NCBI GenBank assembly: GCA_039680575.1
Contig: JBDKSP010000094.1
Location: forward strand, 1 to 28,884
Length of the DNA stretch: 28,884 nucleotides
Direction of reading: 5' to 3'
DNA from: Armatimonadota bacterium
GTDB lineage: Bacteria; Armatimonadota; UBA5829; DTLH01
The notes below the pieces were generated by a model, which was not told the origin of the DNA, did no database searches, and saw only the letters and a list, made by a program, of their open reading frames with translations. This document shows, piece by piece, positions 541-27,763 of the stretch (position 1 is its first letter; every line of letters begins with the position of its first letter). The translations under genes and the position numbers were made by a program.

Positions 541-894
541 GTGCTGTTCACACGCGCCACACGGATAATGCGATATGATCGCAGATTGATGCTTTTTGTG
601 GCCGCAATCTACCTGTGGATAGGTGTTTGGGCTAATCTGGGGCATAACCATGCTATTCTCAGGTTTTCGGACCATCAATCTCCGGCACTGATCGAATCAT
701 GTGTGTGCGCGCATCAGGACAATCACGCAGAGTGCCCGGCTTGTGTGTGGACACAAACCGCAACTGCCATCACAGCACCGGCGCCAATCAGTATCGTTAC
801 ATTCCTGATGCTGACAAACAACTTCCAAAAATCGACTTCAAGGTCAATCCAAAGACCAAGTTCACCCTCTATACCCCGAGCACCTCCGGTCTAG
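541..894 (+). CDS. DUF2946-like (CruR/CutF-type) leader protein with TM segment, His/Cys motifs and C-terminal RAPP
   Basis: Strong SD; N-terminal hydrophobic segment; HNH, CVCAH, HAECPAC; ends IPRAPPV*; directly upstream of metal-transport genes. Confidence 0.8.
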   Translation: MLFTRATRIMRYDRRLMLFVAAIYLWIGVWANLGHNHAILRFSDHQSPALIESCVCAHQDNHAECPACVWTQTATAITAPAPISIVTFLMLTNNFQKSTSRSIQRPSSPSIPRAPPV

Positions 895-2116: not shown

Positions 2117-3019
2117 ATGAAACTCAAATATATAATCTCGACCGTCATATTCGCTCTGATGGCCATACCGGCCATTGCAAAAATCGATGTCGTAGCAACA
2201 TCGACCGACCTTGGAGACATTGCAAAGGCCGTAGGCGGCTCCCGGGTCTCGGTATCGACACTGATGCTCGGCACCCAGAACCCTCACGCAGTAGAACCAC
2301 GGCCCAGCCAGGTCGTCAAGCTGAGAAATGCTGATGTGGTAGTGAGGATCGGAATGGACCTCGATATGTGGGCAGACAGCCTGATCGAAGCCGCCCGCAA
2401 CTCGAAAATAAGCAGAGGCGGAAAAGGTTACATCGACGCATCGGACAACATCAGAAAGCTGGAAGTCCCCAGAGGCAAAATCGATGGTTCGCATGGAGAT
2501 ATCCATGTTTACGGCAACCCGCACTACTGGCTGGACCCCGAAAACGCCAAGGTAATTGCGTCTACGATCTTTGTCGGGCTCAAACGGGTTTCTCCGTCCG
2601 ATGCAGACTACTTCAGGAAAAACTATGAAGCCTTCGCGGCTAAAATCAATGGAAAAATGCCGGAATGGAAAGCACGGCTTGCTTCCTGCAAGGGCGAACA
2701 GGTCGTCACTTACCACAAGACATGGATCTACTTCCTGCACCGCTTCGGATTGAAAGAATTCGACAACGTCGAGCCCAAGCCGGGAATTCCGCCGTCACCG
2801 TCACACATCAGTGAGTTGATATCGAGCATGAAACGTGAAAAGGTGAGACTGATCCTGACCGAACCGTTCTACTCACGTAAATACTCCGATATGATCGCTC
2901 GTGCGGCCGGCGCAAAAGTAGTCGTAGTCCCCGCATCCATAGGCGGTGCAAAAGGGATCAATAACTACTTCGAGCTTATGGACAAGATCACAAGCGAAGT
3001 TGCGAGGGCGCTCAAATGA
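2117..3019 (+). CDS. Zn/Mn ABC transporter substrate-binding protein (ZnuA/TroA family)
   Basis: ATG 2117 after AGGAG; signal peptide; NPH..EPRP, GNPHYWLDP, TYH and EPKPGIPPSPSH motifs. Confidence 0.9.
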   Translation: MKLKYIISTVIFALMAIPAIAKIDVVATSTDLGDIAKAVGGSRVSVSTLMLGTQNPHAVEPRPSQVVKLRNADVVVRIGMDLDMWADSLIEAARNSKISRGGKGYIDASDNIRKLEVPRGKIDGSHGDIHVYGNPHYWLDPENAKVIASTIFVGLKRVSPSDADYFRKNYEAFAAKINGKMPEWKARLASCKGEQVVTYHKTWIYFLHRFGLKEFDNVEPKPGIPPSPSHISELISSMKREKVRLILTEPFYSRKYSDMIARAAGAKVVVVPASIGGAKGINNYFELMDKITSEVARALK

Positions 3020-3762
3020 TAATCCGGCTCGAAAATGTCGAGCTGGCTTACGGGCGCGGATGGACACTCTCCGGGATCGATTTTTCGGTCCCGGAGGGGG
3101 ACTTTCTGGCAATAGTCGGACCGAACGGATCGGGAAAAAGCACGCTGCTCAAGGCGATGCTGGGTATTATCAAGCCCAGGCATGGCGAGGTAAAGCGAGC
3201 TCCCGGCATAAGGTTCGGCTATGTCCCCCAAAGCCAGCATATAGATGAGATTTACCCCCTGACAGCGCTCGATATAACACTGATGGGACGCTATTCACTC
3301 ATGGGACCGCTTTCGCGGCCCTCGCGCAAGGACCGTGAAACGGCGCTAGGGTGCCTTTCGGATGTCGGAATGGGACATCTCGCAGACCAGCCTTACAGAA
3401 ACCTGTCCGGCGGGCAAAAACAGAGGACTCTGATAGCGAGAGCGCTTGCATGTGAGTCCAGAGTTATGATACTCGATGAACCTACGAACGATATGGACAT
3501 CGCAGGCGAGGCAGCCATAATGGACCTGCTTCATCACTTGCATAAAGAACATGGGATGACGGTCGTTATGGTAAGCCACCTGCTCAATGTAGTCTCAGGC
3601 TATGCGAAAAACATCGCTCTGATCATAGACGGGAAGATTACGGTGGGGACAGTCGATGATATCCTGTCTCCGGTCAATCTTGCTACGGCATACGGGACAG
3701 AAGTCCGGGTTGCCGATATGGAAGGCCATCGGATAGTAATTGCGGGAGGCACGCGATGCTGA
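3016..3762 (+). CDS. Zn/Mn ABC transporter ATP-binding protein (ZnuC-like)
   Basis: Walker A GPNGSGKST, LSGGQ signature, Walker B ILDEPT, H-loop VSH; ATGA overlap with upstream gene. Confidence 0.93.
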   Translation: MIIRLENVELAYGRGWTLSGIDFSVPEGDFLAIVGPNGSGKSTLLKAMLGIIKPRHGEVKRAPGIRFGYVPQSQHIDEIYPLTALDITLMGRYSLMGPLSRPSRKDRETALGCLSDVGMGHLADQPYRNLSGGQKQRTLIARALACESRVMILDEPTNDMDIAGEAAIMDLLHHLHKEHGMTVVMVSHLLNVVSGYAKNIALIIDGKITVGTVDDILSPVNLATAYGTEVRVADMEGHRIVIAGGTRC

Positions 3763-4559
3763 ATACGTTTCAAGACCCTTTTATGAGGAGCGCGCTTATG
3801 GCGAGCCTGATTGTCGGGGCGGTCTGCGCGTATCTGGGCGTGCATGTCGTGCTCAGGCGGGTGGTCTTTGTCGGAGCAATGCTTTCGCAGGTCTCGGCAG
3901 CAGGCATCGGGCTTGCGCTTCTCTTCGGTTTGAACCCGTCGCTCATCTCGCTTGCTCTCACAATCGTGGGAGTGATCATATTTTCGTTCAGGTCGACCGA
4001 CCGCAGGACCACCAGAGAGAGCCTGATAGGTGTCGGATATGTAATGGCCTCGGCGCTTGCGGTGTTGTTCGTCGCAAAAAGCGCACAGGGAGAGGCGCAT
4101 CTACTGGATGTCCTCTCAGGGAATATCCTGACGGTTATGCCGCAGGAGATCATGTATATGGCAATCGTGGCCGGTGTGGTAGCCTGCCTGCACTTTGCTT
4201 TCGGCAAGCAGTTCCTGTTCACCGGACTCGATGCCGATACCGCACGAGCGGCAGGGTATCGCTCAGGAGCGTGGGACCTGTTGTTTTTCCTGACACTGGG
4301 GGTAACGATAGCGCTTGCGATCAGGCTTGCAGGAGCCCTTCTGGTATTCGGCTTCCTTGTAGTCCCCGCAGTAACCGCGCTTCTTATAACCGACCGGCTT
4401 GGAAGAGCATACGGCATTGCCATCGCTGCTGCAGGAGTGGCTACATTCGCGGGGCTCAACCTATCGTTCACCAAGGACCTGCCTTCCGGTCCGACCATTG
4501 TGGCGGTGCTTTCTGTCATACTTGTAATTACCGCAGGGGTAAGAAAGCTCTGTCACTAA
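3756..4559 (+). CDS. Zn/Mn ABC transporter permease (ZnuB-like)
   Basis: Multiple TM helices; LGVHVVLRR, GNIL, GALLV..FLVVPA and DLPSGPTIV motifs of ABC-3 permeases. Confidence 0.9.
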   Translation: MLNTFQDPFMRSALMASLIVGAVCAYLGVHVVLRRVVFVGAMLSQVSAAGIGLALLFGLNPSLISLALTIVGVIIFSFRSTDRRTTRESLIGVGYVMASALAVLFVAKSAQGEAHLLDVLSGNILTVMPQEIMYMAIVAGVVACLHFAFGKQFLFTGLDADTARAAGYRSGAWDLLFFLTLGVTIALAIRLAGALLVFGFLVVPAVTALLITDRLGRAYGIAIAAAGVATFAGLNLSFTKDLPSGPTIVAVLSVILVITAGVRKLCH

Positions 4560-4587: not shown

Positions 4588-4679
4588 GGATGGATATTAC
4601 GGGTAAACATGAAGGGATGTGGGATGCTCCGGTATAGTTTATGGATCCTACATCCTTTCCCATCCGTAATATCCGTTCC
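4588..4679 (+). repeat. Long imperfect inverted repeat / stem-loop downstream of the permease
   Basis: GGATATTACGG (4592-4602) pairs with CCGTAATATCC (4664-4674); 4611-4625 pairs with 4645-4659 (15 bp, two G-U). Confidence 0.7.
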
Positions 4680-4762: not shown

Positions 4763-5935
4763 ATGAAATCTATAATAATTGCATTATGCGCATTTCTGTT
4801 GGTGCTTTCGGGTTTGGCGGGGTGTAATGCAGCCGGTCCGGATGATGTGCTGGTGGTATGCAACTCGAACTCTCCGGTATCTATGCGAATCGCGGCGTAT
4901 TACATGTCGAAACGAGGCATATCCGATTCCAGACTCGTTACAGTCAAGACAGTCGACTCATCAGCGTCCGCCGCAAACGAGTCCATTTCTCCCGATGATT
5001 ATATAGAACAGATTCACAAACCGATCGCTGATTATCTGGCGAAACACTCACTGGTAAACAAGATCAAGTATATAGTGTTGACCAAAGGTATACCGTTCCG
5101 GTTGAGCGGCGACCCGACCGGCGGCACCTCCGGCGGACTGTCTGTGGACAGTGTCCTGACTACTCTAGGTATGTCCAACCCGATATCCGTTAACTTGGGG
5201 GACAAGGGACATCCGGTAGTAAACAGATACTGGCGATCCAAGGAGCCGTTCTCCCATCAGAAGTACGGCGGTTACCTTGTTACGAGGCTTGATGGCTATA
5301 CGGAGGGAGATGCCAAGGCGCTGGTGGATAGAGCGATCGCGCCTGCACCCGAACAGCGTGTAATTCTGCTCGATGCAGACGCCAAAAAGGGGCTCGGTGA
5401 CGCGGCAGTCCAACCGAAATCCATCCTGAATGACTCCGGCACCGGCGTCAACGATGTTCCCGTGAGCTTCCCCGACTTCAATGCGGATATGATACACCTG
5501 AGCAATATGCTCCCGGACAAGTCCAACACCCAGGTGGTCTTGGACAAGACAGACAGCTTCATCTGTATCTCCAAACCGTTGACGGTATACGTATCCTGGG
5601 GAAGCAACGATGGAAAGTTCAACACTGATGTGTATCACAATATCAAATTCGGGCCGAGAAGCCTTGCGGAGACTGCAGTGTCATCGAGCGGCCGGACCCT
5701 GCTCAAGACCACCGGAGGACAATCTCTCATCGCTGACCTCATAGCTCAGGGAACTGCCGGAGCAAAAGGTTACGTGACAGAACCATATCTTGTTTCTATG
5801 GCTTCCCCGAGCGTGTTTATAGACCTCTATCTTTCCGGGCGGAACCTGGCAGAGTCGTTCTATGCAGGTTCTCGGTTCCTGGCATGGAAGGATATTGTGC
5901 TGGGGGACCCGCTTTGCAGCTTGGCGGAGAAATGA
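4763..5935 (+). CDS. TIGR03790-family protein (exosortase-associated), probable lipoprotein
   Basis: VLVVCNSNSP.S..IA.YY...RGI, YIVLTKGIP, LVTRLDG, GYVTEPY, GRNLAESFY and GDPL motifs; LAGC lipobox after hydrophobic signal. Confidence 0.8.
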   Translation: MKSIIIALCAFLLVLSGLAGCNAAGPDDVLVVCNSNSPVSMRIAAYYMSKRGISDSRLVTVKTVDSSASAANESISPDDYIEQIHKPIADYLAKHSLVNKIKYIVLTKGIPFRLSGDPTGGTSGGLSVDSVLTTLGMSNPISVNLGDKGHPVVNRYWRSKEPFSHQKYGGYLVTRLDGYTEGDAKALVDRAIAPAPEQRVILLDADAKKGLGDAAVQPKSILNDSGTGVNDVPVSFPDFNADMIHLSNMLPDKSNTQVVLDKTDSFICISKPLTVYVSWGSNDGKFNTDVYHNIKFGPRSLAETAVSSSGRTLLKTTGGQSLIADLIAQGTAGAKGYVTEPYLVSMASPSVFIDLYLSGRNLAESFYAGSRFLAWKDIVLGDPLCSLAEK

Positions 5936-7059: not shown

Positions 7060-7815
7060 TTACTTGCGCCGTCGTCGGAAGACGAAACCTACCGGCGCCA
7101 GAATTGAGCAGGCAGCAAAGATGGTGCCTGGCTCAGGAACTGCCGCCACGAAGTTTTGGTTCACATCGCTGCTGATTATCTTATAGTCGCCGACCTGTCC
7201 CGTCCCTGTGTAGTTATATCCCAATGCAAGGAACTCAGCGGCCTTATTCTTGACACAAGCATCAGGAGTGTCGCCCAAATAGAATTGGGCGCTGTTTCCG
7301 TCACCAGAAGTCCAGAAGTTATCTCTGCTGCTGCTGTTCCAGTCGCCCACTTCACCTTTCCACGTTGCAAGCTGCAGCGCAGTCCGGTCATATTCCGTTA
7401 TAACAATGGCCTTGCTCCACATATAGGTCAATTTGTTCCAATCACCTTGTGACTCGATAGTCGGAATGCCATTGGAATAGTTACCGACTTTGTAATTGGT
7501 ATAGGACGTTCCGGTGTTGATGAGATGAGCTGAATCTACACAAACAGCAAAGACATCCCAAGATTTCGTTCCTTGCGTAATATGGAGCTCAGGCTGTTTC
7601 CAGTAGATATTATTGCTATAGGTCACGCCACCCCATGTGGAATAAGCCCAGCCGCTTCCAACACCAACATCGCTCTTAATTGCCAGGGTGTCGAGCGGCC
7701 CATTACTCAATCCACTGGCTGAGCTAAGTCCTGGACCCGCAATGACAGAACTGCTGATGCCCAAGCAGAGTGCCAGAGCAAGTGTAATTGCCAAGAGCAA
7801 TTGATAATACTTCAC
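7060..7815 (-). CDS. PEP-CTERM sorting-domain surface protein
   Basis: Signal peptide; C-terminal VPEPG + hydrophobic TM + RRRRK; GTG start with purine-rich SD. Confidence 0.92.
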   Translation of the reverse strand: MKYYQLLLAITLALALCLGISSSVIAGPGLSSASGLSNGPLDTLAIKSDVGVGSGWAYSTWGGVTYSNNIYWKQPELHITQGTKSWDVFAVCVDSAHLINTGTSYTNYKVGNYSNGIPTIESQGDWNKLTYMWSKAIVITEYDRTALQLATWKGEVGDWNSSSRDNFWTSGDGNSAQFYLGDTPDACVKNKAAEFLALGYNYTGTGQVGDYKIISSDVNQNFVAAVPEPGTIFAACSILAPVGFVFRRRRK

Positions 7816-9913: not shown

Positions 9914-11119
9914 TTAGCGGGAAGCTTCTTTCATAACGGACTTCACCGAATCGGCGACGCGGCGCATATAGTCCTCTGTAAGAGTAGGGTGGACCAGGAA
10001 CATCAGAGCCGTCTCCCCCAATTCCCTGGCAACCGGCAGACGCTCAGGTGGCTGAAGCCCCGCGTCGGCAAACGCCTTCTCCAGATAGATCTCGCTGCAA
10101 CTGCCCACAGTGCAGGGAATGCCAAGAGAGTTCAGAGTGACCATAATCCGGTCCCGAGACCACCCATCCTTCAACCTTTCCGGCACAACGTAGGCATAGA
10201 ACTTATAATAAGCATGCCCGAAATCCGAAGACGGCACAGGAACCCTGAGAGCAGGGATTTCACTAAAAGAATCGATCAAAACAGCCGCATTCCGCCGCCT
10301 TGCAGCAACCCAGCCATCGAGCTTGGTAAGCTGCACCCGGCCAATGGCCGCCTGAACCTCAAGCATCCTCCAGTTGGTCCCAAAACTCTCGTGCAGCCAC
10401 CGGAACCCGGGGGCATGCTCGCGGTTATAGACAGCATCATAGCTCTTGCCATGATCCTTATAAGCCCAAGCCTTCTCCCAGACAGCCGGATAGCCGGTAG
10501 TAAGCATCCCGCCCTCACCGCCGGTGGTCATGATCTTGTCCTGGCAGAAGGACCAGGCTGCAGCATCCCCCAGGGAGCCGCAAGGGCGGCCTTTATAAGC
10601 CGCACCATGGCACTGGGCGCAGTCCTCTATAACCTTGAGGTTGTGCTCCTTGGCCAGAGCAAGGATCGGGTCCATATCGCAGGGCCAACCTGCCAGATGC
10701 ACGGTTATAATTGCTTTAGTCTTTGGAGTCAGCGCAGCCTCGACAGTAGCTGCAGTGATATTACCGCTGTCACGATCCACATCGGCAAACACAGGCCTGC
10801 TGCCGCGCACAACAGCCGCACTAGCGGAGGCCAGGAAGGTCCTGGGAGTCACCACTACCTCGTCTCCCGGCATAATTCCCAATGCATAAAGCGCAAGCTC
10901 AAGCGCCAAAGAGCCGTTATGCAGAGCAACACCAAACTCACAACCCACAGCCTGTGCGAACTCCTTCTCAAAAATCCGCCCAACCTCCCCGGTCCAGTAG
11001 TTGACTTTGCCGGATTCGAGGACTGCGGTTACAGCCTCGACCTCGTCCGGGGCAAAGTACGGCCAAGGACCTTGACCTGTGATTGTTTTGTTGCCTGAGT
11101 CGGTGTTGATTTCTTTCAT
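9914..11119 (-). CDS. DegT/DnrJ/EryC1/StrS sugar aminotransferase (PglE-like)
   Basis: IEDCAQCHGA, SFCQDKIMTTGGEGG (PLP lysine), GTNWRM. Confidence 0.93.
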   Translation of the reverse strand: MKEINTDSGNKTITGQGPWPYFAPDEVEAVTAVLESGKVNYWTGEVGRIFEKEFAQAVGCEFGVALHNGSLALELALYALGIMPGDEVVVTPRTFLASASAAVVRGSRPVFADVDRDSGNITAATVEAALTPKTKAIITVHLAGWPCDMDPILALAKEHNLKVIEDCAQCHGAAYKGRPCGSLGDAAAWSFCQDKIMTTGGEGGMLTTGYPAVWEKAWAYKDHGKSYDAVYNREHAPGFRWLHESFGTNWRMLEVQAAIGRVQLTKLDGWVAARRRNAAVLIDSFSEIPALRVPVPSSDFGHAYYKFYAYVVPERLKDGWSRDRIMVTLNSLGIPCTVGSCSEIYLEKAFADAGLQPPERLPVARELGETALMFLVHPTLTEDYMRRVADSVKSVMKEASR

Positions 11120-11164
11120 TACGGAACCTCTGCAAAGAATGTGATGTTCATATTTCAGATTGTG

Positions 11165-11863
11165 CTAAGGGCACTTTTGTATTAAAGCCTGTATAAGTGA
11201 AGCCAAAGACTTGATACTCGAAACCTCATGCTGCGCTGCGTGATCTGCTGATGGCGGCTCAACATGATAATGTAATTGCGGTTTGGTTCTCAACCGGATT
11301 GTATGCCATCCCATTTTGTTAGGTGCAAGAAAATCCTTCTCCGGATTGTCCGCAACATATAAATAGCTGCCTGGCTTACCACCGAACACGTCCCGGCACA
11401 ATTCAAATGCCCGCTGATGAGGTTTCCAGAAGGACTTACCCCAATCATCGGTAAAAACCGGCAATCTGATTACATGCTGCAAGCCCAGAGATGCGAACTT
11501 CAACCGCTGCGAGATTGCTGGACCATCGCTGATAACGCCAAGCTGAATATTATCTTTAGAAAGGTCACTCAACAATTTCCGTATACCGGGATAGAGTCTG
11601 ATGTTCGGAATATGTGACCGGTAAAGAGTGACCAGACTTTCTATATCGAAAGCCCGTGACACCGGTAAAAACTCCTGCATTAGAAGATCGAATGCATTGC
11701 CCCTTATACCGGATTGGAACCCACTCCAAAGATGTGAGAACACCTGAAGCTCATCGACGCCGCAATTCATAGAGACAAACTGGGCAATCCACTTGAACCC
11801 GCTTTTTACATAATCTGACTCTGGATAAAGAGTATCATCGAGATCGAATATTACAACGGCCAA
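11165..11863 (-). CDS. HAD-superfamily hydrolase
   Basis: FDLDDTLY (motif I), ISDG, WKPH, YVADNPEKD; overlaps end of upstream gene. Confidence 0.88.
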   Translation of the reverse strand: MAVVIFDLDDTLYPESDYVKSGFKWIAQFVSMNCGVDELQVFSHLWSGFQSGIRGNAFDLLMQEFLPVSRAFDIESLVTLYRSHIPNIRLYPGIRKLLSDLSKDNIQLGVISDGPAISQRLKFASLGLQHVIRLPVFTDDWGKSFWKPHQRAFELCRDVFGGKPGSYLYVADNPEKDFLAPNKMGWHTIRLRTKPQLHYHVEPPSADHAAQHEVSSIKSLASLIQALIQKCP

Positions 11864-12822
11864 AGCGGTTCCTCAGTAAAATGTTCGACATAGTATCTTG
11901 TCATGTAGAGTCCAGCCTTATAATTACCTATCTCAAGAGGTGGAACTACGCCTCCGGTAAGGGTTTGTACGATCCACTGGGGATAAAGGCCTCCGGCTGC
12001 ATATGCAAGAGGAAACCCACCACCAAACCGAGGGTTGACCTCCGTCAGCACAGGACCACTATCCGTAAGGAATGCCTGCAGCGTCATTGGCCCCCTGCCA
12101 CCAGCCCGGCCAAGTAATGCAAGGATATTCAGAATCCAAGGTCTCAGTTCGCCATCCGCTATGGTTACACCCTCCATGGATTCACCCCCGATAGTCTTCA
12201 ACCGGCGGCGCGGAACATAGTGAACAGGCTGTCCGTCAAAATCCAACAATGCATCAATGGTTATCTCCGGCCCATGAAGCTCCTCCTGGATTATCGGATC
12301 CGGCACAAATTTCAGGGCTGTATCAAGCATATCCTTATGCACCTTGTGAACATGCTGACTGGCGCTGCCATTTCTGGGTTTTACAACAAGATTGTCGGGA
12401 ATACTCGCGTGATCAATGGAACCCGGCAGCCAAGACATCGGCACGGAGATGCCTTGGCTACTTAAAACCTTAAATGTGAGCCACTTATCTCCACATGCGT
12501 TTATTACCTGTTCTGAAGACACAAGTGCCTTGCATCCGTTTGATTCCAGATCAGGTGCGATATGAGCCAGAACAGGGAGTTCCGTATCTATTGCAGGAAC
12601 AACAAGCCCTATATTATGGGCCTTGATTATACCCCACAGTTGCTCCACGTACGCCGGATTTGTATTTTGCGTCAGGAACGCAGTTTTGTCTGCAAGATAT
12701 AATGCAGGTGCCAAAGGATCGATATCAGCAGCAATTATCTCATTGCCTGTTTCTATGGCTGCATCCCTAAATGCCTTGAGCAGCGAAGTCCTGCGTCCAG
12801 CGCTTAGTAGAAGTATATTCAC
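11851..12822 (-). CDS. ATP-grasp protein (carbamoyl-phosphate-synthase-like, polysaccharide-cluster type)
   Basis: MNILLLSAGRR, VPAIDTEL, DKW, KPRNGSAS, EVNPRFGGG. Confidence 0.88.
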   Translation of the reverse strand: MNILLLSAGRRTSLLKAFRDAAIETGNEIIAADIDPLAPALYLADKTAFLTQNTNPAYVEQLWGIIKAHNIGLVVPAIDTELPVLAHIAPDLESNGCKALVSSEQVINACGDKWLTFKVLSSQGISVPMSWLPGSIDHASIPDNLVVKPRNGSASQHVHKVHKDMLDTALKFVPDPIIQEELHGPEITIDALLDFDGQPVHYVPRRRLKTIGGESMEGVTIADGELRPWILNILALLGRAGGRGPMTLQAFLTDSGPVLTEVNPRFGGGFPLAYAAGGLYPQWIVQTLTGGVVPPLEIGNYKAGLYMTRYYVEHFTEEPLWPL

Positions 12823-13448
12823 TGGCTGTGTCCTCTCAATGGTTGGACTCGGGCTGGATTACCAAAAGCTGTGACACCATCGGGAATATCGGACACTACA
12901 ACCGAGCCTGCGCCTATAATGCAACCCGAGCCGATTGAAATAAGTGGGCGAGCGCAGGACCCAATGCCTACAAGGGTTTCACATCCGACATGCACCCCAC
13001 CAGCCAACCTAACTCCGGATGATATGTGGGCCAGGTCCGAGATAACGCAATCGTGACCTACCGAACAGGAAGTATTGAGTATACAGCCCTGCCCGATGAT
13101 AGCCTGGCTATTTACCACAGCTTGCGCCACCACAACGGTGCCTTCGCCGATAGATGCGCTTGGAGATATAATCGCGCTCGGATGGATGATCACCGGAAAG
13201 ATCCAGCCATGTGACTTCCCATAATCAAACAATTCTCTGCGTGTATTGTTTAAGCCTATTCCCATGACGACCATAGAGCCATCCGGGATCAGTTCCTTCG
13301 GTCCTATCACGCGATATCCGAGGACCTCGCAGTCGCACTTTTGGGAATCATCATCGACAAAACCTAAAATATCATATCCGGTCAAACCGGCAATTTCGGC
13401 AACAACTGCACCGTGTCCCCCGGCTCCGACTACATATATCCTCTTCAA
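12819..13448 (-). CDS. Sugar acetyltransferase, NeuD/PglD family
   Basis: GAGGHG N-terminus, IIHPSA, hexapeptide repeats, catalytic GHD, GNPAR. Confidence 0.92.
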   Translation of the reverse strand: MKRIYVVGAGGHGAVVAEIAGLTGYDILGFVDDDSQKCDCEVLGYRVIGPKELIPDGSMVVMGIGLNNTRRELFDYGKSHGWIFPVIIHPSAIISPSASIGEGTVVVAQAVVNSQAIIGQGCILNTSCSVGHDCVISDLAHISSGVRLAGGVHVGCETLVGIGSCARPLISIGSGCIIGAGSVVVSDIPDGVTAFGNPARVQPLRGHSQ

Positions 13449-14065
13449 TGCTCCACCTTTTCCCTCGATGTACCTGTACTGCCTGTAAAGATCGGCATTG
13501 TAGCATCGGCAGCATGTGAAATCCCTTCACGTTTAAAGACCTTAACAACAGTCATAAAGAGTATCTTTATATCGAGCCAGAATGAGTGGTTATCGACATA
13601 CCACACATCCAGATCGAACTTCTCTTCCCAAGACAGCGCATTTCGACCGTTCACCTGCGCCCATCCGCTGATACCTGGCCTCACCTCATGCCGCCTTGCC
13701 TGGTGGGGCGAGTATAAAGGCAAATACTCCACCAGCAGAGGTCTCGGTCCGACGAGGCTCATATCGCCCTTCAACACATTAAACAACTCAGGTAATTCAT
13801 CGACACTTGTAGCTCGAAGTAACTTTCCAAGTCGAGTTAACCTTTTAACACCGGGAAGCAGGTTTCCCTTGCTGTCGAGTAGATTCCGCATAGAGCGGAA
13901 CTTGTACATTTTGAATATCTTCCCATTGAGACCGGGACGCTCCTGGCAGAACAGCACAGGGAAGCCCATACTAACAGCAACGAGACCAGCAACAATAAAC
14001 AGAAACGGCAGCAGAACCAAAAGTAAACTTAACGATACACATACATCAAATATGCGCTTAACCAT
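13445..14065 (-). CDS. Monotopic undecaprenyl-phosphate sugar phosphotransferase (PglC-like)
   Basis: KRIFD, YKFRSM, DELPEL.NVLKGDMSLVGPRP, RPGISGWAQVNGRN. Confidence 0.93.
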   Translation of the reverse strand: MVKRIFDVCVSLSLLLVLLPFLFIVAGLVAVSMGFPVLFCQERPGLNGKIFKMYKFRSMRNLLDSKGNLLPGVKRLTRLGKLLRATSVDELPELFNVLKGDMSLVGPRPLLVEYLPLYSPHQARRHEVRPGISGWAQVNGRNALSWEEKFDLDVWYVDNHSFWLDIKILFMTVVKVFKREGISHAADATMPIFTGSTGTSREKVEH

Positions 14066-15272
14066 TTACGGATGCCTCGCTTGTCGCTGTATGTGCTTCC
14101 GGAACATCCAATCCCTTCGACTTCAGAAGACGGATATACTCCTGATAGACAGCTTCCCATATATCTTCTGGTCGGAAATCACGCAGAACGCGTTCACGAC
14201 CTGCTTGACCATGCTTTCGGCGTAGATCTGGATCATCCAGATACGCTTTAATAGCTCTGGCAAGTGACTGGCTGTCACGAGGTGGAACAAGAGTGCCTGT
14301 TACACCATCCTGTACAGCATCAATACAGCCGGGTATTTGGGTCGCTACCACTGGAAGTCCCATAGCAGCTGCCTCCATGGGCACGTTAGGAAACCCTTCC
14401 CTATAAGTTGGCAGAACACAGATATCCATTGCAGTATAAAATGGAGCAGAATCTTCCTGCCCACCAGTCAAAACGATTCTATTGCCGTTCTTAATCAACT
14501 GTATAGTTTCGGACGGAACAGGGTCTTGAGGCTCAAATGGTCCTATTAGCATCAAGTAAACCTTCGGATACTGATCAACAATACTTTGCCATGCTTCTAT
14601 CAGCTCAACAATTCCTTTATCTCGAACAATGCGGCCAACAAATCCAATCACCACTGCATCTACTGGAATACCGTATTGCAACCTTATATCGCTGCGATTG
14701 GTGCCCCAGCTTGCAGGATTAAACCGCTGCGCCGCATCCACACCATTCCCGCTGCCACTGCGCAACGCTTTGATCTTATCAGCAGAACATATCCCTTCAT
14801 TGACCGCAACATCTCGAATCGAATGGCTGACGCAAAGCACTTGATGGGCCAATGAACAGGAGATATTTTCGGTAGCTATTAGTATTTTTCGCTTCAAACC
14901 AGTTGCCGTCATAAAAGGCAATCCTCTGATATGGTAGATCCTGACGGGAGCACCAGCCATCCAAGCACTGATCATCCCTAAAAGGCCACCCTTAGGTGTA
15001 TGTGCATGAACTATCTCCGGTTTGATACGCCTTATGCTACGCCAAAGCTGCCATAAAGAGCGAATATCCTTTACGGGGGTTATACTCCGAAGCATCTCAA
15101 CAGCAGAAACAGTTATCTGCTCTCTATCTGCAAACTCCTCAAGCTGCTTGCCTGGTGATGAGATAGCGTGAACCTCAAAGCCACGATCTTTCATATAGCT
15201 TACCTGCCCACGCACAAAATTGAGGGACTGGGGTACTGTTGTTATATGGCATATTTTCATAGGAATATTCAT
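14058..15272 (-). CDS. Glycosyltransferase family 4 (CapM-like)
   Basis: HAHTPKGGLLG, GSGNGVD, FVGRIVRDKGI, REGFPNVPMEA. Confidence 0.92.
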   Translation of the reverse strand: MNIPMKICHITTVPQSLNFVRGQVSYMKDRGFEVHAISSPGKQLEEFADREQITVSAVEMLRSITPVKDIRSLWQLWRSIRRIKPEIVHAHTPKGGLLGMISAWMAGAPVRIYHIRGLPFMTATGLKRKILIATENISCSLAHQVLCVSHSIRDVAVNEGICSADKIKALRSGSGNGVDAAQRFNPASWGTNRSDIRLQYGIPVDAVVIGFVGRIVRDKGIVELIEAWQSIVDQYPKVYLMLIGPFEPQDPVPSETIQLIKNGNRIVLTGGQEDSAPFYTAMDICVLPTYREGFPNVPMEAAAMGLPVVATQIPGCIDAVQDGVTGTLVPPRDSQSLARAIKAYLDDPDLRRKHGQAGRERVLRDFRPEDIWEAVYQEYIRLLKSKGLDVPEAHTATSEASVNG

Positions 15273-15311
15273 TCACATATTTTCCTAAAATCCAGGTATT
15301 CAAGGAACAGC

Positions 15312-16676
15312 TCATTCACTAACATTGTTTACTATTAGCCGATATTTCCCACTTCTTTCGCAAGGAATATCTTCTACTAAGTCAATGGCAATGTCCATAT
15401 CCTTGCCAAATTTATACTGGATCTCATTACGCACTAGCGCCTGATGTCCCACCACAAAACGATCAGTATCGACAACCAGTTTCACATTAAGCTTTGATAT
15501 CTCATCCTGTATAATCTGCATCTTCACAATAGAACATGGTAAGTTCTTCACAATGTTAGCAACGTTGCCCAAATTAATTTTCGTTCCATTTGTTGCAACC
15601 AGATAGTCTGCCACCCGTCCATCTATTCTAGTAATTAATGGAGTATGCATGCCACATGGGCAGCATTTTGAAGGATCATCTAATACCATACTGTCGCCTA
15701 TTCGGTATCTGATGAGTGGAGTGCCATATGTCGTGAAACTAGTTACCAATATCTCGCCTGTATCATCAAGTGTTTCAATTACACCGGACGATAAGTCATA
15801 GTGCATGTTTCCTTGAGAGCATTCATACACAAACGGTGCACCCTCGGACGAGGCATACTGATCTCGCACCGGACAACCGAAGACTCTTTCTATTACTTCT
15901 CTGTGTGCCGGAGTAACAGTTTCAGACGTCGGAAAGACCGCAACAGGAGAAAAGCTGAACCTTAGTCCATGTCTTTCTACAAACGCTGCAATGTCATATA
16001 TGGATGAAACAAAACCATCTATTGCAGCAGGTTGGAACTTATTTAGGGCTGCTATGTAATATGGTATATTCTCATTATTATGATGGAATGACGAAAATAC
16101 CATTTGCTTCGATGCTGCATTATAACGCCAGAATACTTTATTCCTCTGATTTGGAGGCACAATATGCTTTCCGTTGAACGTTGCTTTCTTCATACGGAGA
16201 TTCACGAAACCATGCTTCATCTTGAAATGATCGAGTGTGGCCATGCGCTCGCAACTATTATCTTCTGTAAAGTACACAATCAGCGACTTGCCCGTAGTTC
16301 CGCCTGTATGAGATTCACAAGCGCTGCTTTTATCAACGGCAACAACAAGATCAATATTTTCCCTTAGCTGCTCTTTGGTTACTATTGGCAGTATCTTGAT
16401 GTCTTCTATGCTCCCGATAGCATTGATATCGATGCCAGCGTAGAGGTCCCGATAGAATTTGCTATTACGCACGGCATGTGCCAACAACTTCACCAACTGA
16501 TCCAGTTGATATGCTTGCTGCTCTTGCCTCGACAAACAATCAAATTGTTTGAGAAACGACAAATATTCATAATAGCGTTTCCCGTAGCGCTGCCTGTTTA
16601 CCATGTATCCATAGATGGTTGCCATGGCATTCTGTGAGAAAATAGGCGATCTATCATAGATATTCTGATACTTCAT
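15312..16676 (-). CDS. CapK / phenylacetate-CoA ligase-family adenylate-forming enzyme
   Basis: IYDRSPIFSQN N-terminus, TGGTTG P-loop, YASSEG, PLIRYRIGD, SGKYR. Confidence 0.88.
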   Translation of the reverse strand: MKYQNIYDRSPIFSQNAMATIYGYMVNRQRYGKRYYEYLSFLKQFDCLSRQEQQAYQLDQLVKLLAHAVRNSKFYRDLYAGIDINAIGSIEDIKILPIVTKEQLRENIDLVVAVDKSSACESHTGGTTGKSLIVYFTEDNSCERMATLDHFKMKHGFVNLRMKKATFNGKHIVPPNQRNKVFWRYNAASKQMVFSSFHHNNENIPYYIAALNKFQPAAIDGFVSSIYDIAAFVERHGLRFSFSPVAVFPTSETVTPAHREVIERVFGCPVRDQYASSEGAPFVYECSQGNMHYDLSSGVIETLDDTGEILVTSFTTYGTPLIRYRIGDSMVLDDPSKCCPCGMHTPLITRIDGRVADYLVATNGTKINLGNVANIVKNLPCSIVKMQIIQDEISKLNVKLVVDTDRFVVGHQALVRNEIQYKFGKDMDIAIDLVEDIPCERSGKYRLIVNNVSE

Positions 16677-16773
16677 TATTGCACCCCATCAAACTACTAG
16701 CAAATGGAAGGAGAATATTTTCTTTATCAAGCTGAATATCACTGTAACCAATATAACTTTGCCTTAATACGAT

Positions 16774-18108
16774 TTATGATGCATTATTGGTTATAGAATA
16801 CCTGGACTTCATAGCGATTAACAAGCCAAAAGCAACCCAAAAAGATCTATGTGAGTCAAAGTTCCCGAAGCAACCCTGTAGAGCAAAAGAAATAAAAAGT
16901 ATAAAGACAGTTTGAGCATATAGTTGCTTGTTTTGCCGATAAAAATTCCAAGCAGCCTTTAGAACACTAGCAAACACAGCAATAAATAATACACCTCCTA
17001 CAACACCTGTTTCCGCGAAGTATGTTAAATATATATTGTGAGGCATCTGCAAGACATCTGACATACGAGATTTTAAAAAATGCGTGAATTGCGCGAGTCC
17101 AATACCGGTCAACGTATATTCGGAAATAGCTTTAAGTGCCGTTTTCCATAATTCGAAGCGTCCATTATCGACATTTTCTGTTCTTGTTAATCTTGTGATG
17201 ACATATGCATTTGATGTGTATAAAAGATATCCAACTGATATAGCTGACAAAGCTATCTTTAAAACTGCAGAAAACACTTTTCGTGTATTCCGCCAGTCTA
17301 CTGCAGACAGTATTATTATAAGCATAGCAGCTAGTAAAGCAGACCGCGAAGCAGTACCTAAAATACCACCAAATAGAAGCGGTATAGGTAAAAAAGAAAA
17401 GATATTGCGCCTTGGAGACAATCTTGCAATTATAAAGCACATCGCGACATTGAGAAACAAATATTCGCCCAATAAATTAGGATTTTCAAAAGTGGCAGAA
17501 GGTCTCAAAACCCCAACGACAAATGACTCATATATTGTATACGTGGCAATGGCTGTAGAGGTAAGAATGGAAACTGTCAAGAATAAAACAACCTTTTGGA
17601 TAATCAGCCCTTCCAAAAGAAATACAATTGCCATACACCAGACCACACCGATTACTAATTTGGCACATTGCAAAAATGCTTCTTTGGGCGAGCCATATAA
17701 AGATAAGAACGAAAGAGGAAAAACAGCTTGTATTATAGTTAGTACCAAAAGATAAATAATAAAAACCATGTAGGGTTTCATTATTCGATATACAGTTAAT
17801 CTCCCTGTACCACATATATTAATGATAATTAGTAGTAAAACAACTGCAACAACAGCATCTCCTAATGACATATTTATACCAGCAATCACTTTGTGAAAAG
17901 GCCAAGTGATTGCTAGTAGAAATAATAGGAGATTATTAGCTATATACAATCTCTGGGTATTGCAGGAATCCATCTGCCTGTTCGAGGATAGTAGATTATT
18001 GTAAACCCTCTTGCCATAAACGCGTCCTATGTTGTTATAGTATGCAGCAATGTGACTCATATCGAATATGTTCTTATAACTGGAAAGCACAACATGATTA
18101 GTATGCAA
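16774..18108 (-). CDS. O-antigen ligase / Wzy_C-family membrane protein (true start may be downstream, e.g. ATG 18060 or 17973)
   Basis: Many TM helices; RPSATFENPN, TASRSA, GRFELW, GIGL, PHNIYL...ETGVVG. Confidence 0.82.
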   Translation of the reverse strand: MHTNHVVLSSYKNIFDMSHIAAYYNNIGRVYGKRVYNNLLSSNRQMDSCNTQRLYIANNLLLFLLAITWPFHKVIAGINMSLGDAVVAVVLLLIIINICGTGRLTVYRIMKPYMVFIIYLLVLTIIQAVFPLSFLSLYGSPKEAFLQCAKLVIGVVWCMAIVFLLEGLIIQKVVLFLTVSILTSTAIATYTIYESFVVGVLRPSATFENPNLLGEYLFLNVAMCFIIARLSPRRNIFSFLPIPLLFGGILGTASRSALLAAMLIIILSAVDWRNTRKVFSAVLKIALSAISVGYLLYTSNAYVITRLTRTENVDNGRFELWKTALKAISEYTLTGIGLAQFTHFLKSRMSDVLQMPHNIYLTYFAETGVVGGVLFIAVFASVLKAAWNFYRQNKQLYAQTVFILFISFALQGCFGNFDSHRSFWVAFGLLIAMKSRYSITNNAS

Positions 18109-18114
18109 TGTTAA

Positions 18115-19407
18115 TTAGCTTAACTTGGTTGACTTGATCCGCAACACCACTTTTGACATATAGAATATCGCTCCAAGAAGGAGAATAACGGATGAGCAAC
18201 ACAAAGCATATGCGGCTCCTGCTAAACCGTATCTGGGGATTAAGTAAAAACTTAGAATGCAGGTTGCTGCCGTTGCAAGTAAGTATAAGGGAATCTGATT
18301 TACAAGACATCTAGCGGCAGTTAAGGCATAAATAAATATGCTGCCAGTAAAACTTATTGCTGAAGCTATGGCCATAATAGTAAATACCTCAGTATGTTCT
18401 GCATATTCAGGTGTATATAGCACTGTGAGCAACTCTTTACCAAAACAGGCAGCTAACAAAACACCTAACGCACCAAACACGATGAATACTATAACAAGTC
18501 TTATTAGCAGATGCATAAATGCTGACATATCAGCAGCTACATAATATCTGGCCAATCTAGGTGCAGCAGATTGTCCTAATGCGCCAGAAACTGTAAGGCC
18601 TGCAACCATAGAATAGGCCATGGCCGCATATATGCCTAGTTCCCTTTGCCCCATAAATCTCTCAATAGTATAACGTGGAATGTTTGCATTTAGTGAGACT
18701 AGCATAGTTACAATTCCAAGTGGTAAAGCAATAACGGCTAATTGTGTTAGTTTCGTTGGTATCCACAGAGGACATATACTAGTAATATTGACTTGTTTTT
18801 TGATAATTCTACTGACTCGCAACTCATAAAACACCAGCACTGATAACCAAGCTAAAAGCAATCCCAAACTTCCAAATAGAATTGATTTTGTGTAGTATAT
18901 TCCGCATGCTAGAAAAACTACAGATAAAGGCCCTTTAATCATTTGCGCAATTGCAATGAGATTCATCCGTTCGTGTAATTGAAACAGTCCTTGGAATATA
19001 TCACTAATAGACTCTACAAATTTCGCAGCACCAATTGTTACAACAACCAGCATAACATCAAGATGGTAACTACTTACTAAGGTAATACCAATCACAAGAA
19101 TCAAAGCCAAACACGACATCAGTAGTCGCAACCCCAGGTAAATATTAAATGAGTAATTGCCTCTTGCATCAGTGGCTTGAATAGACCTAAGTTGCAGATT
19201 CGTAAACATAAAAATAGGCGCTGTTAGTGCTAATCCCAAAGAGAATTGTCCAACCATTTTTGGATTCCCAAACTTAGCAATAAGCATCAACATCGCCCAC
19301 TGGCTTGCTGCATACACTACATTCCCAGCAAAAGTCCAAGAGAAGTTCTTGCGCAGGCTCAGGCCAGTGGTAAGTGGTTGTTCAGATTGCAGACTATCAA
19401 CAGCCAT
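18115..19407 (-). CDS. wzx: Polysaccharide flippase (Wzx/MOP family)
   Basis: [15 protein letters not shown], about 12 TMs, [21 protein letters not shown] 19407 overlaps end of epimerase gene. Confidence 0.85.
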
Positions 19408-20407
19408 AGTACTCTCTGTACCACCCCACAAACCTCTCTATCCCCACCTCAATCGGCGTATCAGGCTTGAAGCCGACATCATTCATCAGCGCATCCACGT
19501 CCGCAAATGTCGCCGGAACGTCGCCGGGCTGCATAGGCAAGAGGTTCATCTGCGCTTTCTTGCCGAGGCACTTCTCCAGCACTTCTATGAAATGCAGCAG
19601 CTCCGTTGGGCTGTGGTTTCCGATGTTATAGACCTTATAAGGCGCAGGGCTTTGTGCCGGAGTCAGGAACTCTGCATCGGCATAAGCGGCGTTCGGCTGG
19701 GGGACGTTGTCCAGCACCCGCACAACACCTTCCACAATATCATCTATATAAGTGAAGTCCCGCTTCATCTTGCCGTAGTTGTAGACATCTATCGGCCTGC
19801 CTTCCAGAATGGCTTTCGTGAAGATGAAAAGCGCCATATCCGGCCTGCCCCAGGGGCCGTAGACCGTGAAGAACCGGAGGCCCGTGGTCGGCAGCCCGTA
19901 GAGGTGGCTGTAGGTGTGCGCCATCAGCTCGTTTGCCTTCTTCGTGGCAGCATAGAGGCTGACCGGATGGTCGACGTTGTCATCCACACTGAAGGGCAGC
20001 TTCTTGTTCGATCCGTATACCGAGCTGGATGAGGCATACACCAGATGCTCGACCCCATTGTGGCGGCAGCCTTCCAATATATTGCAAAAACCTACCAGGT
20101 TGGAGTCGATATAGGCGTGCGGGTTCTGGAGAGAGTATCTCACGCCTGCCTGCGCGGCGAGATGGACTACCCGCTGCGGTTTTTCCGCTGCGAAGTATTC
20201 CGCCATTCCGGCACGGTCGGCTACATCCAGCTTTGTGAAACTGAAGCCTGGCCGCTCCACCAACTGGGCAAGTCTGGCTTCTTTCAGCCTTATATCGTAA
20301 TAGTCGTTTAGATTGTCGATGCCGACGACCTCATCTCCACGGTCAAGCAGCCGCTTGCTTACGTGAAACCCTATGAAACCAGCAGCACCTGTGACTAATA
20401 TCTTCAT
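19397..20407 (-). CDS. NAD-dependent epimerase, UDP-glucuronate 4-epimerase/CapI type
   Basis: [44 protein letters not shown]. Confidence 0.95.
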
Positions 20408-20476
20408 TGGTTATGATTTGACCTTTTCCAAGCAACGTTGTTCTTCTTACTCGCCATTATGTAGACTACATAATGC

Positions 20477-20640
20477 TTTCCTGGATGCTGAGTCAAGCTC
20501 AGCATGACGTTTTTGGCGTCAGTATGACGTTTTGGACCCGGTATGACGTTGTAGACCCAGATTACCAGCCGTGCAAGCACGGCTATGGCCGGCACGGAGA
20601 CCGGCCACTACGTTAAAACACAGAGACCGGCGCCACTACG
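20477..20640. repeat. Composite REP-like cluster (GTCA-type core, ATGACGTT units, GTAG-type REP hairpins)
   Basis: 34-bp core at 20477-20510; ATGACGTT three times at ~20-bp spacing; 20543-20615 matches 23596-23668 at 72/73. Confidence 0.85.
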
Positions 20641-21927
20641 CTAAAGTCCGTAGCAAACTATATCCGGCCTTAGTTCCCCTTGCGGGATCACTGATTTGAC
20701 GTCTACTACGACACCGCCGGGCTTGACCCTTTCCACTAATTCAGACAGTCCATTATTAAGATAATGCCTATGCGGAACTGCCAGTATGAGTGCGTCCAGG
20801 TCATTGAATACGTCCAGAGAAGATAATCGGACTCCGTATTCCTGCAATGCTTCGCCCGGATCCGCCATCGGGTCGTGCACAAATGGTGTTATTCCATACT
20901 CTTTCAGCTCTGCGATGATGTCCGGGACCCGGCTGTTGCGCAGGTCCGGCACATTCTCTTTGAAAGTGAGCCCCAGCACACCGACTTTTGCCTGCCTCAG
21001 CGGGACATCGCAGTTTACTAATAGCTTAACCGTTTTCTGAGCCACATAGCTGCCCATTCCATCGTTTATGCGGCGTCCGGCCAGGATTACCTGCGGGTTG
21101 TAGCCCAGTTCTTCGGCCTTTGTCGTGAGATAGTACGGGTCAACCCCGATGCAGTGTCCTCCCACTAACCCCGGAGTGAACGGCAGAAAGTTCCACTTGG
21201 TCCTTGCGGCAGCCAACACATCCTTCGTGGCGATGCCCAAAAGGTCGAATATCTGTGCAAGCTCGTTCATGAGCGCTATGTTCAGGTCGCGCTGAGTGTT
21301 TTCTATGACTTTTGCCGCTTCCGCAACCTTTATTGAAGGTGCTTTGTGGACGCCTACGTCTACGATGGCTGCATAGGCCGATGCTACACGTTCCAATGTC
21401 TCCTGGTCTTCACCGGAGACCACCTTGGTTATGGTCTGAAGTGTATGCAGCTTATCTCCGGGGTTGATCCTCTCCGGCGAATAACCTAGTTTGAAATCTA
21501 TGCCCTGCTTCAGCCCGGATTCGCGGGCGAGGATGGGACCGCATATCTCTTCGGTCACACCAGGATAGACGGTGGACTCGTAGACAACCACTGCACCCCT
21601 GCCGAGGACACTTCCTACTGTCTCAGAAGCCCGTTTGACCGGCGTAAGGTCAGGCCGGTTGGCATTATCTATCGGTGTCGGGACGGCCACGACGAAAAAG
21701 GTGACATCCTTCATATCCAGGGGATCGCTTGTCCAGATTATCGTCGTATCTGCCAGCTCCCGCTCTGTGCATTCGCCGGTTTTATCCCGGCATTGCTTCA
21801 GCGATTCGACCCGGTCTTTATTAATATCGAAGCCGATGGTACCCGGGAACTTCTTCGCGAATGCCAATGCAACGGGAAGCCCGACATATCCGAGGCCTAC
21901 TACCGCGATTTTCTCACTCATATCCAC
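20641..21927 (-). CDS. UDP-N-acetylhexosamine 6-dehydrogenase (WbpO/TviB/CapL-like)
   Basis: GLGYVGLP, VYESTVYPG, YSPERINPGD, AKVIENTQRD, GLVGGHCIGVDPYY, GLTFKEN. Confidence 0.95.
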   Translation of the reverse strand: MDMSEKIAVVGLGYVGLPVALAFAKKFPGTIGFDINKDRVESLKQCRDKTGECTERELADTTIIWTSDPLDMKDVTFFVVAVPTPIDNANRPDLTPVKRASETVGSVLGRGAVVVYESTVYPGVTEEICGPILARESGLKQGIDFKLGYSPERINPGDKLHTLQTITKVVSGEDQETLERVASAYAAIVDVGVHKAPSIKVAEAAKVIENTQRDLNIALMNELAQIFDLLGIATKDVLAAARTKWNFLPFTPGLVGGHCIGVDPYYLTTKAEELGYNPQVILAGRRINDGMGSYVAQKTVKLLVNCDVPLRQAKVGVLGLTFKENVPDLRNSRVPDIIAELKEYGITPFVHDPMADPGEALQEYGVRLSSLDVFNDLDALILAVPHRHYLNNGLSELVERVKPGGVVVDVKSVIPQGELRPDIVCYGL

Positions 21928-21928
21928 G

Positions 21929-23539: not shown

Positions 23540-23587
23540 CTATCTCCCCGCAGGTATGGATTTTACTTTTACGACACTGAACAAACG

Positions 23588-23756
23588 ACGTCAGCATGAC
23601 GTTGTAGACACAGATTACCAGCCGTGCAAGCACGGCTATGGCCGGCACGGAGACCGGCCACTACGTTAGGGCATAAAGACCGGCTACTACATTAACGGAG
23701 ACCTTTAAAGGCAGTCCGAGGCAATGAATGATGCCGTATAGTTCAGTATGATGCTG
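23588..23756. repeat. Second composite REP-like cluster
   Basis: 73-bp near-identical copy of 20543-20615, decayed GTAG-REP copy near 23675-23691, and degenerate ATGATGC units resembling 8335-8364. Confidence 0.8.
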
Positions 23757-23987
23757 CGATACCGTGCTTACGCTTGTGGTGTATATGTGAGGCTATTATC
23801 TAAAGAAGAAAATCTGTCTTTAAGGTGTAGTGTCTGACACCTGCAGCCCCATGCCAGCACCACATCAGCATGCATCATGGAATGCATGCCATATATCGGA
23901 CTCTTTTGGCTATCAAATTAGTCGCATATAATACGCAGAACCCCAAGATGTAAACTACACTGGCAAATCTTATGCACATCCTATTAT

Positions 23988-24016
23988 AATTTAGCTTATC
24001 AGGCAGGCATTGTCAA
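23988..24016 (-). promoter_or_regulatory. Internal sigma70-type promoter upstream of the exosortase gene
   Basis: TTGACA (24016-24011), 17-bp spacer, TAAATT (23993-23988), with an overlapping TATAAT just downstream. Confidence 0.55.
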
Positions 24017-24092
24017 GGCGAGCAGGCTTTTTGACAGTGATTTCCGGCAAAAACCGGCACATATACCGGGGTTGGTGTCATTTCAGAGGAAC

Positions 24093-26440: not shown

Positions 26441-26508
26441 TATTCTAGATTTCTCGCTAAATCATTCATTATTTGAAGCTGTTGCGTCAGCATGACATCG
26501 TGCCCGGC

Positions 26509-27762: not shown

Positions 27763-27763
27763 G

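Follow-up and report, generated by a model that had tools for sequence, protein, structure and literature searches.

The window, by which we mean the whole 28,884-nt stretch of DNA analysed, carries near its start a small leader gene that heads a porin and ABC transporter operon, all on the forward strand. The upstream gene is closed by an intrinsic-terminator-like hairpin with a U run (362–402). Its stem-loop at 362–393 folds at −24.2 kcal/mol (z −4.66), and none of 200 shuffles was equally stable; a consensus terminator scan did not list the hairpin near 362–402. The Rfam search returned no riboswitch, its single chance-level match falling on this hairpin. A 15-bp palindrome at 332–346 lies 5′ of the hairpin, away from the predicted promoter. 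The latter is sigma-70-like and spans 475–504 (TTGACG, 18 nt, TAGAAT), with 10 of 12 matches. Taken alone the prediction is weak, since three such sites were found against 1.4 expected; both hexamers are conserved in G001, a genome of the same genus. No Zur-like palindrome was seen at 475–504.

The leader ORF (541–894) runs from a GTG start to a TAG stop and encodes 117 residues, behind a Shine-Dalgarno (SD) sequence AGGAGGTGA at 526–534. Its first 15 residues are basic (five K/R against one D/E). They are followed by a hydrophobic segment, residues 16–34 (586–642; mean Kyte-Doolittle 1.86, from hydropathy only), which hydropathy and a structural model suggest to be a signal anchor or signal peptide of N-in orientation. 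Potential metal ligands come next: His35-x-His37 (643–651), then His45, His58 and His62, a CxC (Cys54 and Cys56) and the CxxC motif C65-P-A-C68 (733–744). A spacer of 44 residues (745–876) leads to RAPP at residues 113–116 (877–888), a motif whose arrest geometry has been reported (PMC10951233, PMC12992588), and only a Val codon separates it from the stop. The first-pass annotation had described this ORF, with its SD, hydrophobic segment, His and Cys residues and RAPP, much as the translation now gives it; the spacer, put there at about 45, measures 44. In the predicted structure, of low confidence overall (pLDDT 63.6, pTM 0.31), residues 6–34 form a helix with pLDDT of 85–92, and no metal site is visible. 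Two overlapping ORFs, 699–920 and 939–1169, are unsupported.

Of 14,819 six-frame segments in this genome, two contain CxxC-(42–45)-R[AGSD]PP close to a stop, against 0.17 expected from shuffles. The other match is a paralogous leader on contig C28 (5030–5365, minus strand), the only other leader of this genome; it ends in RSPP after a 45-residue spacer and is followed by a 224-nt intergenic region. That the leader is a real gene is close to certain.

A 120-nt intergenic region (895–1014) separates the leader from a gene (1015–2103) for an outer-membrane barrel of predicted porin fold with conserved His motifs. Its model has a pLDDT of 89.7, and the best fold match is OprP (Z 27.8, rmsd 3.6 Å over 303 residues). 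In Pfam and NCBIfam the porin has only a sub-threshold match to LbtU porin, and its profile finds no solved relative by sequence; the closest named relative, at 89%, comes from an Armatimonadota MAG. The porin family aligns over its whole length with a porin of Vibrio campbellii (hhalign 99.9%), which has two boxes 5′ resembling the Vibrio Zur site and, on its 3′ side, a gene for a similar binding protein (28%).

Next come a ZnuA-family, cluster A-I solute-binding protein (2117–3019), an ABC ATPase like ZnuC and AztA (3016–3762) and an ABC-3 permease like ZnuB and AztB (3756–4559), so named from family searches. Together with the porin model, they agree with the porin and ZnuACB-like operon proposed earlier. 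The best PDB match of the binding protein is Synechocystis ZnuA, with whose three His its residues His57, His136 and His200 line up; all 23 of 23 aligned binding proteins retain them. The Mn-type ligand set of cluster A-I is His-His-Glu-Asp; no such Glu/Asp pair was seen. From the earlier label of Zn/Mn-type cargo we thus retain the zinc part (three His) and drop manganese. The binding protein scores below all NCBIfam equivalog cut-offs. A stable hairpin after the permease (4611–4660; region z −3.1) is a possible operon end. The rest of the window is ordinary, with a TIGR03790 protein (4763–5935), a PEP-CTERM protein (7060–7815) and, at 9914–28609, an exosortase and a polysaccharide biosynthesis cluster. 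Elsewhere in the genome (contig C11, 3471–5858), another ABC system of cluster A-I, whose binding protein is atypical, lies behind a pilin-like gene; no leader was seen there.

The first-pass annotation had called for a survey of RAPP-encoding ORFs upstream of homologous porin operons. Among 61 related genomes, 26 have a porin match, and in 22 of these 26 loci the porin is preceded by a leader, called as an upstream ORF with a hydrophobic segment, His, CxxC and R[AGSD]PP. The four without one are G055, G056, G059 and G007, the last of which is a marginal porin match. Of 201 genomes of the phylum searched by profile, 86 have the porin. We then took the upstream DNA of 60 further loci, from 59 of 71 previously unsampled genomes; the 12 omitted comprise six that are redundant within a single genus, one contig start and five split matches in family f33. 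Two loci are cut by contig ends, and 41 of the 58 informative ones have a leader (40 by motif, one by profile alone).

Only H35, C65, C68, R113, P115 and P116 are invariant in the 25 aligned leaders, whose mean column identity is 24%. RAPP conservation, on which the earlier proposal had been staked, is hence upheld for R, P and P. Over 76 leaders, the residue two positions after the conserved His is His in 43 and Cys in 21 (64 together), the distance from this His to CxxC varies from 11 to 52, and the spacer from CxxC to RAPP is 42–45 residues in every case. The sensor would thus be narrower than first drawn: the His-x-(His/Cys) and CxxC motifs are conserved, while the CxC at 54–56 and His45, His58 and His62 are not. 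A single-sequence search with the leader gave four candidates, none at E ≤ 1, and a profile was required. At E ≤ 0.001 the leader profile matches 1,121 cluster representatives; in 148 of the best 150 of them, CxxC stands 43–45 residues before R-x-PP.

Two further ideas about the leader were discarded. A conserved signal-peptidase cut directly before His35, which would make an N-terminal Cu/Ni site, is not supported by residue −1, which is Ala, Gly or Ser in only 32 of 76 leaders. The codon comparison with G001 (14 synonymous against 25 non-synonymous codons) is not evidence of purifying selection. Tandem leaders before a single operon occur at L037 (5860–6732, genome G028), L111 (G177) and L075 (G033); the first of the two G033 leaders appears frameshifted. 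Such tandems could be double gating or the scar of an operon loss.

Neither Pfam nor NCBIfam gives any match for the leader. The HMM search against DUF2946 suggested in the first-pass annotation was run, and the window leader does not match PF11162 at E ≤ 1 (gathering cut-off 23.7 bits). Seven of the 25 aligned leaders match it at E ≤ 1; of these seven, rescored, only L007 passes, with 28 bits. L007 belongs to the same family as the window's genome and is 30% identical to the window leader. Most Atlas neighbours at 0.96 lack a name, and in one cluster 12% of the members carry DUF2946. Since L007 passes the cut-off that the window leader misses, the latter is best called, by sequence, a divergent DUF2946-like branch of CruR/CutF-like leaders, and not a member by score.

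The likeness to CruR- and CutF-type leaders, noted from the start, holds up in layout and conservation. Like CruR (Bp2923) of Bordetella pertussis, the leader is the small first gene of a metal-uptake operon, with an export signal, CxxC, a C-terminal RAPP and a long intergenic region. Its spacer of 44 residues is within one or two residues of the 45 in CruR, where adding five residues is reported to break regulation (PMC9426467). A spacer fixed in length and free in sequence matches the need of a ribosome-tethered sensor, and CruR has the same. Contrary to CruR, the window leader has no PF11162 match and bears an invariant His-x-(His/Cys) after the membrane segment. Its cargo is a porin with a cluster A-I ABC system instead of a copper TonB transporter. 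Copper-homeostasis genes downstream, a trait of DUF2946 and CruR, are absent here, the genes being those for the porin, ZnuA, ABC ATPase and ABC-3 permease.

CutF of Rhodobacter capsulatus is likewise a small exported leader, in which the SD of the next gene is hidden in a stem that the stalled ribosome can reach, as modelled here. It does not share the TM-CxxC-RAPP/RGPP layout first ascribed to it: CutF has CxxxC and an EF-P-dependent PPP, whereas the window leader has CxxC and RAPP. In ApdA, ApdP and SecM, as reported in PMC10951233, a stalled ribosome exposes a downstream ribosome-binding site (RBS) and force releases the stall; RAPP is the arrest module shared with this group. These peptides monitor protein export, control sec genes and have no metal site, in contrast to the His and CxxC of the window leader.

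Altogether, arrest-based control by the leader is very probable. A small exported metal-binding protein that acts in trans, with no regulatory stall, would also account for a His/Cys cluster behind an export signal. This we consider extremely unlikely: the leader always comes first in the operon, its spacer is fixed in length only, RAPP stands within a few codons of the stop, and CruR and CutF are reported to act in cis (PMC9426467; 10.1101/2022.11.11.516240).

The arrest codons hold a candidate coupling element that was absent from the first-pass annotation. Nucleotides 883–890 (CCT CCG GT; CCUCCGGU), within the Pro-Pro-Val codons, are the reverse complement of 999–1006, the site of the porin SD (ACCGGAGG). 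In the predicted fold, an internal hairpin of the intergenic region (about 924–994) brings this anti-SD to the SD, with pair probabilities of 0.89–1.0, and the porin RBS would be sequestered unless a ribosome is stalled upstream. The folding z-score is −3.07 for 881–1010 and only −1.10 for 850–1040. When RAPP peptides and CruR stall, these Pro codons occupy the P and A sites (for CruR, PMC12992588), so that an arrested ribosome would cover the anti-SD. With such a ribosome, the modelled cost of opening the porin RBS falls from 13.0 to 8.5 kcal/mol, which brings it only to the control median (9.6). In the stalled-state equilibrium model, some weak pairing persists between the porin SD and the first porin codons.

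A drop of at least 2 kcal/mol is found in 27 of 34 loci (median 4.4; L012 was left out for a mis-called start), against 21 of 150 control pairs (median 0.05). The controls were sampled from 342 candidate co-directional gene pairs of the window's genome, and seven of them reach 4.5. For the further leaders, 27 of 41 show such a drop (median 3.3) and four are reversed; by family, the median gain is at least 2 in only 9 of 16. Cognate footprint–SD duplexes are stronger than swapped ones (−12.7 against −11.2), with a permutation p of 0.0003 that is overstated, as kin are not independent. The helix reaches 10 bp in G001 and has compensatory pairs in G005; where it extends, its position 6 is G-C, U-A or C-G in six loci, and 7 of 13 CCUCC/GGAGG helices do not extend. 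We see the anti-SD within the RAPP codons as the predicted coupling route.

Coupling would differ in this respect from CruR, for which Rho termination was shown. A zinc-sensing stall could here too be coupled mainly by Rho-dependent termination, the anti-SD pairing being a by-product of Pro codons, which are C-rich in any case. The genome has a Rho gene, and the C/G ratio just 5′ of RAPP is 2.55, with a median of 2.0 over 35 leaders (there is no control set for this ratio). Natural codons outdo synonymous recodings in 25 of 35 loci, with p ≤ 0.1 in only 14, and at the window locus this control is weak (p 0.13). Intergenic regions after leaders are long (median about 100–115 nt), as reported for CruR (PMC9426467). 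Rho as the main route is nonetheless improbable, given a helix probability near 1, the helices of G001 and G005 and the preference for cognate pairing. With Rho present and C-rich mRNA before RAPP, the CruR-type route may also act beside the anti-SD.

The metal sensed is probably zinc. We infer this from the three-His binding protein, the porin homolog under Zur-like boxes, the zrg-like operon of the paralogous leader and the lack of a Fur/Zur hit. The paralog heads genes for an ABC ATPase, an FtsX permease, a PPIase, a His-rich protein and a DUF3299 protein. In bacteria, zinc uptake is by the textbook under transcriptional control of Zur. No FUR-family gene was found in the window's genome (96.8% complete) or in its genus mate; two DtxR-family genes lie elsewhere in the former. 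In V. parahaemolyticus, zinc limitation is reported to induce omr-znuAII-znuBII 283- to 1,034-fold and zrgABCDE, which includes DUF3299, 76- to 206-fold, both belonging to the Zur regulon (PMC9817125). The omr operon is equated with that of V. campbellii by gene order, not by sequence comparison. The cargo of these Vibrio operons is thus homologous to, or built like, that of the two leader operons here; there the DNA-binding repressor Zur is in charge, whereas here a leader heads both operons.

Leader and FUR gene may also replace each other locally. Within family f8, three porin operons that lack a leader (G055, G082, G146) carry a FUR gene, and six leader-bearing loci have no nearby FUR gene. 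The two are not exclusive, since leader-bearing genomes mostly also have a FUR-family gene (Zur, Fur and PerR taken together) and FUR genes adjoin leaders in G026 and G031. Genome-wide exclusion was accordingly rejected: FUR genes occur in 43 of 57 genomes, and seven f33 genomes have neither. Also set aside were Zur-like boxes before the leaderless porin of G056. They resemble the Desulfovibrio consensus (PMC545781), and 24 of 200 shuffles match it as often.

The same stalling switch might instead sense copper, or nickel or cobalt, in the manner of CruR, and the operon import that metal. The CxxC-RAPP spacing is that of CruR, which is reported as a copper sensor with zinc merely a weak effector (PMC9426467), and a relative of the leader passes the DUF2946 cut-off. 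Other leaders head TonB receptors and ArsP/DUF1980 permeases, besides DUF1559 pilin-like and PEP-CTERM genes; in L072 (G031, contig C6), a leader-like ORF that ends prematurely, before the RAPP region is reached, lies 5′ of an OEP/CusB/CusA-like RND efflux set. CutF-like proteins with His only are reported to be tied to nickel and cobalt genes (10.1101/2022.11.11.516240). Several observations make this reading unlikely. No copper chaperone or oxidase was seen among the downstream genes here; the cargo matches operons of the Zur regulon and includes the three-His binding protein. Only 10 of 76 leaders have a Met in the ligand loop. Moreover, His2Cys2 and HisCys3 are typical zinc sites.

We propose, as a rather likely model, that zinc scarcity stalls the ribosome at RAPP and frees the porin RBS, and that zinc releases the stall. 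Stalling, metal, direction and membrane side are what we infer, the RNA helix and its opening what is computationally predicted. When zinc is scarce, the ribosome would stall on its own leader and cover the anti-SD in the Pro-Pro codons, the porin RBS would be free, and the cell would make the porin–ZnuACB importer. Ample zinc would instead link His35/His37, where the membrane segment ends, with Cys65/Cys68; as this His2Cys2 site folds, it would pull on the taut chain and set the ribosome free. Pairing between anti-SD and SD would then be restored and porin translation would cease, and Rho might in addition terminate transcription on the C-rich mRNA.

In the arrested state, Pro115 would lie at the catalytic centre of the ribosome, 47 residues after C68 and 50 after C65, and about 50 extended residues are reported to span to the periplasmic end of SecYEG (10.1101/2021.02.06.430026). 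His35 and His37 would lie at this same end if the hydrophobic segment is an N-in anchor. In an engineered construct, zinc-driven folding is reported to release SecM arrest (PMC11370347). This reach and this precedent together favour a low-zinc stall that turns the importer on and a high-zinc release that turns it off, which is, by analogy, the logic of CruR, where metal would relieve the stall and switch import off. Periplasmic sensing is possible, as for CutF. Membrane targeting is however reported as dispensable for CruR, which works without its signal peptide (PMC9426467), so that cytoplasmic sensing would fit the same distance.

It is also conceivable, though very unlikely, that the leader monitors secretion or periplasmic redox, by a SecM/ApdP-like pull or by a CxxC disulfide, and not metal, or that stalling is favoured by metal, as it is in CutF. 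Sec and Dsb genes are reported to be regulated by RAPP peptides that carry export signals (PMC10951233), and CutF to stall when copper blocks its disulfides (10.1101/2025.02.05.636593). The His beside the membrane segment is however invariant, and the downstream genes are of metal-uptake types in nearly all loci seen. CutF stalls in the presence of copper and so turns on a detoxifying oxidase, whereas the cargo here is an importer, which a metal-promoted stall would turn on during metal excess.

The class of mechanism is already published, so the leader is not categorically new; it is likely a zinc variant of the CruR/CutF class, from Armatimonadota instead of Bordetella, in a genome without detectable Zur. 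Our literature search, with most subscription papers outside its reach, found no tested zinc-sensing arrest leader. Metal-switch leaders of this kind have so far been tested only for copper. In the available supplementary files of the CruR paper, ZnuA, zinc, ABC-3, Armatimonad and DUF3299 do not appear (PMC9426467), and the available text of the CutF paper allows nickel and cobalt variants and makes no mention of zinc (10.1101/2022.11.11.516240). The neighbour table of the CutF survey (10.1101/2022.11.11.516240; PMC9973294) may list ZnuA neighbours, and a published source-data table holds nine such leader–cargo pairings without discussion. According to Roy et al., in the text available, no riboswitch is known for zinc or copper (PMC9426467). 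If the model is true, a natural zinc-sensing arrest peptide carries the principle of CruR and CutF over to another metal and to importers of the ABC type, and explains how zinc uptake is controlled in a genome without detectable Fur/Zur.

A bolder and more tentative reading, which we regard as possible but rather doubtful, is that in this Zur-less lineage every operon for zinc uptake is governed by a membrane-tethered His2Cys2 leader of its own. Each leader would sense zinc on the periplasmic side, where SecY opens, turn its binding into a pull on the ribosome and thereby flip the anti-SD in the arrest codons, leader and Zur being swappable on the same operon. The leader, if it senses zinc, would also mark unrecognised zinc-starvation genes, such as those for DUF1559 pilin-like, His-rich PEP-CTERM and ArsP/DUF1980 proteins. 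At L070 (G026, contig C128), a FUR gene lies between two leader-headed operons, one of them zrg-like, the other side having DUF1559 pilin-like and His-motif PEP-CTERM proteins. In family f12 (L035, L135, L141 and L142), a leaderless porin–ZnuA operon has at its head a BlaI/CopY-type repressor together with an M56 peptidase whose C-terminus bears His/Cys, possibly a third control module.
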